A DNA stretch of 64,000 nucleotides from a virus (taxonomy: Duplodnaviria; Heunggongvirae; Uroviricota; Caudoviricetes): IMG/VR virus record IMGVR_UViG_3300033067_000531; one strand, written 5' to 3'. Position numbers and translations under genes: made by a program. The notes beneath the pieces were generated by a model that was not told where the DNA came from, ran no database searches, and saw only the letters and a list, made by a program, of their open reading frames with translations. Of the stretch, positions 271 to 1,838 are shown in pieces. Every line of letters starts with the position of its first letter. Positions within the stretch are counted from its first letter, which is position 1.

Positions 271-345
271 TGGTAGGGGCACAGAGAATCGAACTCTGAT
301 TACCTGGTTAAAAGCCAGATACTTTAGCCGTTAAGTTATACCCCC
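271..345 (-). tRNA. tRNA-Lys(TTT)
   Basis: Anticodon arm TCTGG-CTTTTAA-CCAGG, T-loop GTTCGATTC, ACCA end. Confidence 0.94.
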
Positions 346-351
346 ATAAAT

Positions 352-504
352 TACCATTTAATTAGTGTTATCGTGTCAATTTGTCAACAATGTAGCTAGC
401 ACTGACGAGCGAATAACAGTTATCTCAGAATCTTAGTGGTCGCACCCTCCGATTCGTAGTCCATACGTCTATGAACCTACCTTGATAACACTAATTAAAT
501 GGTA
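352..504 (-). ncRNA. Candidate structured ncRNA closed by a 21-bp perfect stem
   Basis: TACCATTTAATTAGTGTTATC (352-372) is the exact reverse complement of 484-504. The ~110-nt interior lies between tRNA-Glu and tRNA-Lys. Confidence 0.6.
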
Positions 505-574
505 CACGATACGAGAATCGAACTCGTCTTTCCGCCTTGAAAGGGCAGCGTCCTAACCGATAGACGAATCGTGC
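500..574 (-). tRNA. tRNA-Glu(TTC)
   Basis: GCACGAT/ATCGTGT acceptor, loop CT-TTC-AA, GTTCGATTC, ACCA end. Confidence 0.95.
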
Positions 575-609: not shown

Positions 610-659
610 ATTGTATCACAACATCACTTACTTGGCAACCAGTGTTGCAGGATTACAAC
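610..659 (-). promoter_or_regulatory. sigma70-type promoter TTGCCA-17-TACAAT with upstream GTTG-N8-CAAC palindrome
   Basis: -10 at 610-615, -35 at 633-638, palindrome at 644-659; points into tRNA-Glu. Confidence 0.7.
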
Positions 660-804: not shown

Positions 805-880
805 TGGAGTAGGTGACAGGAATCGAACCTGCATAAAACGGGGTTGCAATCCGTTCCCTAGCCTTTCGGGTCACACCTAC
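805..880 (-). tRNA. tRNA-Cys(GCA)
   Basis: GTAGGTG/CACCTAC acceptor, U73 discriminator, loop TT-GCA-AC, GGTTCGATTCC, CCA end. Confidence 0.93.
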
Positions 881-1113
881 ACTAACTTTTTACGTGAACT
901 ACGGTGAGTTTCATCACGGCGCATAGTCCAGTTGTAAGAATTACCATCAGGTAATGTCTTGTTTTCTACAGCATCAACACCGAAAGCACCAACAATCTCT
1001 GTTGTACCATCGGTGATAGTTACGAACTTGCCGTAACCTTTCGCAAAATTTATTGCATCACTCAATGTTGCACATGCGTTCAACACTGTGTTTTCATATT
1101 TTACTTTCCACAT
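877..1113 (-). CDS. Hypothetical protein within the tRNA cluster (78 aa)
   Basis: ORF track 877-1119; the ATG at 1113 (MWKVKYE...) is the likelier start. It fills the gap between two tRNAs on the coding strand. Confidence 0.7.
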   Translation of the reverse strand: MWKVKYENTVLNACATLSDAINFAKGYGKFVTITDGTTEIVGAFGVDAVENKTLPDGNSYNWTMRRDETHRSSRKKLV

Positions 1114-1126
1114 AATCAACTTTCTT

Positions 1127-1219
1127 TGGTACCTGCACTAGGATTCGAACCTAGAATACTCGCTAATCTGGCGATAAACAGTGTATAAGACTGGCGTTTT
1201 ACCATTAAACTATACAGGC
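1127..1219 (-). tRNA. tRNA with UAU anticodon (nominal Ile) and long variable arm
   Basis: GCCTGTA/TGCAGGT acceptor, D-arm GTTT/AAAC, loop CT-TAT-AC, 23-nt variable region with TCGC/GCGA hairpin, CTAGG-TTCGAAT-CCTAG T-arm, ACCA end. Confidence 0.85.
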
Positions 1220-1486: not shown

Positions 1487-1575
1487 TGGAGGAGGGATGG
1501 CAGAATCGAACTCCAACCGCTTTCGCAGTCCATCTGTTTTCAAGACAGTGCTGGTCCCAGACCAGATAACCCTCC
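1487..1575 (-). tRNA. tRNA-Ser(TGA), atypical architecture
   Basis: Loop CT-TGA-AA, long variable arm, GTTCGATTC T-loop, CCA end; 5-bp D stem and one extra nucleotide in the T/acceptor 3' strand. Confidence 0.82.
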
Positions 1576-1787: not shown

Positions 1788-1838
1788 ATTGTATCAGAAC
1801 CAAAGATTCTGGCAACTACACTGTTGTTTTGAAACAAC
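1788..1838 (-). promoter_or_regulatory. sigma70-type promoter TTGCCA-16-TACAAT with upstream GTTG-N8-CAAC palindrome
   Basis: -10 at 1788-1793, -35 at 1810-1815, palindrome at 1823-1838. The downstream leader resembles the one at 577-620. Confidence 0.7.

Follow-up and report, generated by a model that had tools for sequence, protein, structure and literature searches.

What follows tRNA-Glu in the tRNA array of this T4-type phage, and why does it begin within the CCA end of that tRNA? A sequence-only reading of the 64,000-nt stretch of DNA analysed here (the window) had proposed a non-coding RNA candidate of about 150 nt at this place, closed by a 21-bp stem that takes up the end of the upstream tRNA. 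Two interpretations had been offered: a tRNA trailer, whose folding sequesters the CCA or steers 3' processing, and a co-processed small RNA. We find that the candidate, called el1 here, is a structured RNA on the tRNA strand, conserved and covarying in relatives (alignment A3, 52 sequences). Of the two interpretations, the co-processed small RNA is the best reading.

The locus and its tRNA array

The phage of the window is of the T4 type, with RegA, the gp44 clamp loader, the gp45 clamp, dCMP deaminase and dNMP kinase found just past the tRNA array. In terms of gp44, the closest cultured relatives are T4-like cyanophages, at only ~61% amino-acid identity. The 167-aa protein neighbouring el1 also has distant cultured relatives only. 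No psbA was found in the related complete genomes. Most of the related contigs come from lake metagenomes, as judged from their names.

All tRNAs within 89-1749 are located on the minus strand, according to both ARAGORN and Rfam. Directly upstream of tRNA-Glu and of tRNA-Gln lies a 48-nt direct repeat, D3 (575-622 and 1753-1800, 90% identical), which comprises a promoter-like site and a leader. A third promoter-like site was seen at 727-700. Matches to the promoter consensus show no enrichment, with 5 found and 4.9 expected in shuffled sequence. On the strength of such a match at 610-638, tRNA-Glu, el1 and tRNA-Lys would be transcribed as one unit. The two promoter-proximal tRNAs, tRNA-Glu and tRNA-Gln, are also the ones with stem-closed modules behind them.

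The rest of the array contains a tRNA missed by ARAGORN at 1491-1575 (minus strand), which Rfam scores as tRNA-Sec with 45.7 bits, slightly below the 47-bit cut-off. This is most likely a class II tRNA-Ser(UGA), because relatives carry tRNA-Ser(UGA) at the same position. At 1127-1219 (minus strand) there is a 93-nt tRNA with anticodon UAU, which owes its length to a long extra arm or to sequence inserted behind the anticodon stem. It measures 91-93 nt in many relatives, a length that is unusual for tRNA-Ile. Between this tRNA-Ile(UAU) and tRNA-Cys lies an ORF of ~78 aa (877-1119, minus strand), with its stop abutting the 5' end of tRNA-Cys. The ORF is conserved at the protein level in 15 related loci, with 41% to 76% identity, and has no PHROG match.

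The inverted repeat at 352-372 and 484-504 is as perfect as had been claimed. Its two arms of 21 nt are 100% complementary, with 111 nt between them, and no inverted repeat in the window is longer. The arm 19-mer, with up to 3 mismatches allowed, occurs at these two sites only in the window, with 0.07 expected by chance. The UACCA noticed in one arm is also present, positions 504-500 being U72, A73, C74, C75 and A76 of tRNA-Glu, and only the orientation had to be corrected. The tRNAs lie on the minus strand, and the arm with UACCA, read 504->484, is the 5' arm in the RNA sense.

The interior (373-483) has a GC content of 44%, compared with 24% for the arms, and stop codons in six of six frames. 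ARAGORN and Rfam RF00005 call no tRNA or cloverleaf in 352-499, and the fold has no T-arm. This agrees with the earlier description of a GC-richer interior that holds neither an ORF nor a tRNA. Folded as the minus strand, el1 reaches -54.3 kcal/mol, with z = -6.3 when compared with shuffles.

A search of Rfam had been suggested as a check. For the whole window at the gathering threshold, and for 1-2100 at E<=10, it returned tRNAs and noise only, and no family matched. The ribozyme and riboswitch models gave no match to el1 even at E<=10, both in the window and in a related locus (L090) searched with el1 and a second module, element B, together. The covariance model of el1, R1, has a single match in the window at 348-506 (minus strand), with 151.5 bits and an E-value of 2e-39. 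The positions of el1, of its parts and of the adjacent features are listed in Table 1.

Table 1. Positions of el1, its helices and junctions, and the flanking tRNA and promoter-like features in the window
Feature	Position	Strand	Basis and remarks
el1, whole stem-closed structured RNA (~153 nt, read 504->352)	352-504	-	Covariance model R1, fold, alignment A3
P1 5' arm (RNA sense)	484-504	-	16 of 21 P1 pairs with both-sided changes across homologues
J1/2 junction strand (AAGGUA..; AAGGUAUC)	477-483	-	Invariant and near-invariant columns of A3
P2 hairpin, 7 bp, GACG loop	459-476	-	6 of 7 pairs compensatory; 95.8% paired cells
P3/P3b hairpin, conserved GUGCGA apical loop at 445-440	428-455	-	P3 5 of 6 and P3b 2 of 2 pairs compensatory; 99% paired
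Candidate pseudoknot partner GCGA in the P3b loop	440-443	-	Opposite UCGC at 412-409; complementary in 52 of 52 sequences
J3/4 junction strand (UGAnAUAAC; with the preceding C, CUGAnAUAAC)	419-427	-	Near-invariant
P4/P5 domain	375-417	-	P4 of 3 bp; internal loop with UCGC (412-409); P5 hairpin 406-383
P1 3' arm, UGGUA end	352-372	-	Terminal UGGUA pairs with UACCA of tRNA-Glu
tRNA-Glu(UUC)	500-574	-	ARAGORN; Rfam 55.9 bits; 3' N73-CCA forms the base of P1
tRNA-Lys(UUU)	271-345	-	ARAGORN, Rfam; begins 6 nt past the el1 3' arm
Sigma-70-like promoter, TTGCCA-17-TACAAT with extended TG	610-638	-	Consensus scan; upstream of tRNA-Glu / el1 / tRNA-Lys
Sigma-70-like promoter and leader, second copy ahead of tRNA-Gln	1788-1815	-	Consensus scan

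Some smaller candidates were considered and rejected. The window's 14-codon frame, a possible micro-ORF in el1, is not conserved across homologues. A leader-trailer pairing around tRNA-Glu does not fit in register. As for an internal promoter formed by the conserved TTGACA within P5, the hexamer covaries with its pairing partner (TTGGCA/GCCAG, TTCACA/GTGAG), the putative -10 is poor and the promoter scan is silent.

Homologues and covariation of the el1 core

More than 100 distinct homologues of el1 were found in IMG/VR and in lake metagenome contigs. The family was entered through loci with the neighbouring 167-aa ORF, which yielded eleven homologues, and then through a degenerate motif taken from the conserved 3' domain. 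This motif is present in 59 IMG/VR contigs and 114 metagenome contigs. Of the 54 distinct variants collected, 52 are full-length and make up alignment A3, and another 50 distinct full-length variants lie outside it. Two exact patterns, one taken from the arm in the window and the other a 24-mer from P3, had 0 matches in IMG/VR. Searched with megablast and blastn against 50,697 cultured phage records, the tRNA cluster and el1 matched tRNAs or nothing. The el1 motif has no match among 185,579 prokaryote species, represented by one genome each.

In five near-complete phage genomes of 136-168 kb, R1 matches exactly once per genome, and at least ten different flanking contexts were found for el1. 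We conclude that el1 is a single-copy ncRNA gene in a clade of uncultured, mostly freshwater T4-like phages. It is a new and well-supported RNA family, widespread in lake viromes, of a kind already known, the stable small RNAs of phage tRNA arrays. A 2023 catalogue reports 10,006 unnamed viral RNA candidates (PMC10690425), and el1 may be among them.

Alignment A3 contains 46 pairs in seven helices, with 95.0% paired cells, compared with 33.8-46.3% when the partners are slid by 1-3 columns. Both-sided (compensatory) changes are found in 36 of the 46 pairs, and none of these measures is reached in any of 500 shuffles. Many of the compensatory cells may go back to a small set of events. The effective sequence number of the model is low, at 1.62, and the alignment is dominated by one conserved core. 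RNAalifold, run independently, gives compensatory changes in 32 of 39 pairs. Covariation is present in every helix of el1; the sequence-only reading had called for a covariance model on relatives.

Among the paired cells, G-U occurs 176 times and A-C 19 times. Given this excess, the fold is therefore that of an RNA on the tRNA strand, and not of a DNA cruciform or a feature of the opposite strand. In one subgroup (L082/85/89/95), the whole closing helix has been swapped for an unrelated 20-bp sequence, with the core kept.

The most sequence-conserved part of the family is the P4/P5 domain. Its P5 hairpin has a palindromic loop, CUAGCUA (399-393), and compensatory changes in 6 of 7 pairs. In the junction strands and loops of el1, invariance is well above what pairing demands. 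The GCGA of the P3b loop and the UCGC of the P4/P5 domain switch together in three divergent members, to GGCCGG:UCGGCU in L033 and L034 and to UGGCGA:UCGCUA in L059. These co-switches, in essence one or two independent events, do no more than suggest a plausible pseudoknot. A second tertiary pairing, between GUAUC of J1/2 and GAUAU of J3/4, was rejected, with no consistent covariation on inspection.

The closing helix and possible functions of el1

Across ~100 variants, the closing helix measures 18-26 bp, with a mode of 21, both with and without an adjacent tRNA. The tRNA that abuts el1 upstream can be tRNA-Glu, Gly(UCC), Asp, Gln or Leu(UAG). In such cases the helix takes in the last 3-6 nt of the tRNA, beginning on N73-CCA, with two exceptions (L133 and L161). 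The 3' arm tracks the discriminator, with UGGU(A) opposite (U)ACCA, UGGA opposite UCCA and UGGU opposite GCCA. From the end of this arm to the next tRNA there are -4 to +7 nt in most adjacent cases, and up to +26 nt in a few.

About half of the el1 variants have no tRNA within 100 nt upstream, and their helix is still 19-26 bp long. Several of them are placed after element B, which itself occupies the tRNA-Glu CCA. In the complete 168-kb genome G004, el1 is found at 110.7 kb among protein genes, and all 25 tRNAs are found at 42-47 kb, 64 kb away. The pairing with CCA, which had been put forward as a feature to look for in homologues, is thus kept when a tRNA abuts, even with Gly, Asp, Gln or Leu, and has no counterpart in the half of the variants that lack an adjacent tRNA. 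Because el1 with the same helix occurs without a tRNA, and in G004 at such a distance from the array, CCA sequestration is not its core function. The CCA pairing is a docking habit of the helix.

In G004 (110735-110895; 4787-4947 in L099), the genes upstream of el1 are one for a CobS-like ATPase and an ORF of 131 aa. The Shine-Dalgarno sequence of a small ORF follows the end of the el1 3' arm at a distance of 4 nt. In this protein-gene context a cis role is possible.

The same geometry had been reported at 1586-1676, and part of this claim stands. The module found there, el2 (minus strand; z = -5.3), has a 21-pair stem, G-U included, that starts from G73-CCA of tRNA-Gln. Its interior is unrelated to that of 352-504 and consists of a degenerate tRNA-like fold with a good T-arm, called by ARAGORN only at -ps80 and with an 8-nt anticodon loop. 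In relatives, the slot after tRNA-Gln keeps a common outer stem, in which an A-C mismatch is fixed, around quite different interiors, from a plain 19-bp hairpin, the L078 copy being a plain hairpin, up to 90-nt cargos.

For the slot after tRNA-Glu, relatives have either a 127-nt type or element B. The latter is a conserved structured RNA of ~210 nt (L011 5140-5355; L090 9798-10022), with a 22-bp helix on the tRNA-Glu CCA, and many loci have it immediately upstream of el1. The fold z-scores are -7.0 for the L011 copy by itself and -7.4 for the L090 copy taken together with el1. No Rfam family matches element B at E<=10. The other type is a module of 127-129 nt (L018 3787-3913; same slot in L009, L026, L028 and L029). 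It has the outer stem sequence of el1 (ACCAUUUGUUU.. / ..AAACAAAUGGU) and a different, shorter interior, and in L018-type loci it is undetected by R1. This module may be a distant or reduced relative of el1.

CCA-anchored long stems were found in 23 of 221 spacers, 21 of these 23 with 17-21 contiguous pairs from C74. A CCA-anchored stem of ~20 bp is common to el1, el2, element B and the 127-nt type, which are otherwise unrelated, and this fits a shared length-measuring processing step. That el1 has many flanking contexts, and that one slot can hold alternative interiors, suggests that modules are exchanged like cassettes through recombination and that selection acts on the RNA fold.

Taking the observed structure, conservation, strand, copy number and context rules as a starting point, we consider it probable that el1 is a co-transcribed and excised stable small RNA, with the stem as a processing and protection handle and the core acting in trans. 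Its transcription, processing enzymes, stability and trans action would then be as follows. Transcription would start at the promoter upstream of tRNA-Glu, giving a tRNA-Glu / el1 / tRNA-Lys precursor. Release would take place during tRNA maturation, with an RNase P cut 6 nt past the 3' arm of el1. The terminal helix of ~21 bp, two helical turns long and part of el1 itself, would serve as the handle for excision and protection. It may be a substrate for a host dsRNA-specific nuclease, with RNase III as the leading candidate, or a barrier to exonucleases and RNase E, or both, and the residual helix after excision would leave protected ends. Next to a tRNA, the helix would run onto N73-CCA, so that the module sits flush in the spacer between two tRNAs. 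The five-helix core would be the functional part, a trans-acting binding partner or decoy for a protein or an RNA. A specific partner is argued for by the invariant loops, and no gene for a Ro60-like or other RNA-binding protein was found linked to el1.

Bacterial RNase III needs a helix of about two turns. The closing helix is of this length (~20 bp) and mostly uninterrupted, with 21 perfect pairs here and 18-26 across the ~100 variants. It is from helix length that excision of el1 by RNase III is predicted. The el1 phages encode no RNase III gene, and therefore any such enzyme would be that of the host. Where tRNAs flank el1, RNase P and 3' trimming could free it without RNase III, as an alternative or an additional route.

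A broader proposal, which we regard as tentative and hold with clearly less confidence, is that el1 is one of several interchangeable cargo RNA genes in T4-like phages of freshwater. The ~20-bp helix, docking on any NCCA or standing alone, would be a universal excision handle, and the core would have a new trans activity. As candidates, the core may be a decoy that draws off a tRNA-directed nuclease or a defence protein of the host, it may form an RNA-only assembly through its palindromic loop, or it may represent a new ribozyme class. If this proposal is true, phage tRNA arrays would be general expression platforms for small functional RNAs.

The co-processed small RNA has to be weighed against other readings. 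That el1 is a tRNA trailer, which sequesters the upstream ACCA in order to time or direct the 3' and RNase P processing of that tRNA, now seems unlikely, and this half of the sequence-only reading is given up. It would account for the pairing of N73-CCA whenever a tRNA abuts, two exceptions apart, and for the opposite base that changes with the tRNA (UGGU, UGGA). It would also suit the placement of both stems of the window behind the first tRNA after a promoter-like repeat, the overlap of UGG with G1-G2 of the next tRNA in some loci, and the UGGN:NCCA logic, which is the same as in the T-box/tRNA contact. However, el1 stands without an adjacent tRNA in about half of the variants, with its 19-26-bp helix retained, and in G004 it is 64 kb off. 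Mere sequestration needs no 110-nt core with invariant loops and junctions, and most tRNAs of these arrays, with spacers of 1-10 nt, have no such stem. Less probable still is a mobile or recombination element at the DNA level, either a MITE-like insertion or a stem-swapped cassette, with a functionless RNA fold. The perfect 21-bp terminal inverted repeats and the occurrence of el1 in at least ten flanking contexts are in line with such an element, and so is the finding that, among relatives, the same slot behind tRNA-Glu or tRNA-Gln holds different interiors in similar outer stems. Nevertheless, el1 occurs as a single copy in the five genomes and in the window, instead of several dispersed ones, and no direct (target-site) duplication flanks its repeats in the window. 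The G-U count of 176 against 19 for A-C is not expected of a DNA hairpin or a double-stranded repeat, and el1 combines covarying internal helices with invariant loops. An exchange of cassettes may well account for the movement of the modules, but not for the conservation of the core.

We give little credence to el1 being a self-cleaving ribozyme of a new class or another catalytic or ligand-binding RNA. Its build, compact, with several helices meeting at a junction of invariant strands and with a putative pseudoknot, is typical of small ribozymes and aptamers, and the transcript that carries el1 needs cutting, but no known ribozyme or riboswitch family matches at E<=10 and the CUGAnAU strand is without the hammerhead core G. 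The most improbable reading, by now largely refuted, is a Y-RNA-like (YrlA-type) RNA bound by Ro60/Rsr through its long terminal stem. It has in its favour the long stem formed by the ends, the multi-helix module and the location in a phage tRNA array. Against it, the Rfam search at E<=10 gives no match to YrlA or Y_RNA, neither a T-arm nor a tRNA-like module is seen in the core, and TROVE (PF05731) is absent from the five el1-carrying genomes, where positive controls responded. In the search of el1 genomes for PF11443 (DUF2828), its own control was silent.

Comparison with known systems

The UGGN of the T-box pairs with the NCCA of tRNA, and the P15 loop of RNase P contacts CCA. Like the T-box, el1 has a UGGN tract that pairs with NCCA, and its N covaries with the discriminator. 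Unlike the T-box, the pairing of el1 is in cis, within the precursor, and accounts for the final 4 of the 21 bp of the helix; it is also dispensable. The tempting idea that CCA pairing is the function of el1 is corrected here.

In the RNase III stalks of bacterial rRNA operons, and at T7 and lambda sites, a long-range helix of ~20 bp or more brackets RNA in a tRNA-containing precursor. In el1, by comparison, the bracketed RNA is of 110 nt and not rRNA, the helix has the tRNA CCA at its base, and cleavage is predicted. As in el1, the two ends of YrlA and Y RNAs pair into a terminal stem that encloses a multi-helix module, and some of them are found among phage tRNAs. Unlike them, el1 has no Rfam match and no tRNA-like module, and its phages have no Ro60/TROVE gene.

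GOLLD and ROOL are structured ncRNAs of phages and prophages, of unexplained function and often near tRNA islands (bioRxiv 10.1101/2024.12.08.627333). They measure 580-800+ nt; el1 is five times smaller and does not match their Rfam models. The presence of a phage ncRNA near tRNA islands is the only theme in common. Self-association of el1 through its palindromic apical loop would be pure speculation.

Finally, the tRNA cluster of T4 encodes the stable RNAs rnaC and rnaD (species 1 and 2), of unexplained function (PMC3014915; T4 annotation), as the sequence-only reading had stated. Like el1, these are small non-tRNA RNAs (119-139 nt) on the tRNA strand, within the array and directly behind a tRNA. 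They are stable and co-transcribed with the tRNAs, properties that we infer for el1. The position in a T4-type array, directly after a tRNA and on the tRNA strand, holds for el1 here but not family-wide, as G004 demonstrates. Searched at E<=1, the tRNA region of T4 (L001) gives no match to R1, so el1 is not homologous to rnaC or rnaD. The rnaC RNA has a canonical T-arm and a short acceptor-like closure, whereas el1 has no tRNA-like arm and a 21-bp helix on the preceding CCA. In position and in mystery, rnaC and rnaD are the closest analogue of el1. The architectural rule found here, a two-turn closing helix docked on the preceding NCCA and common to unrelated modules, makes a vague class testable, and the conserved core is a defined bait for a partner search. 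With el1, the long-known kind of RNA represented by T4 species 1 and 2 gains a new and unusually well-supported member family.
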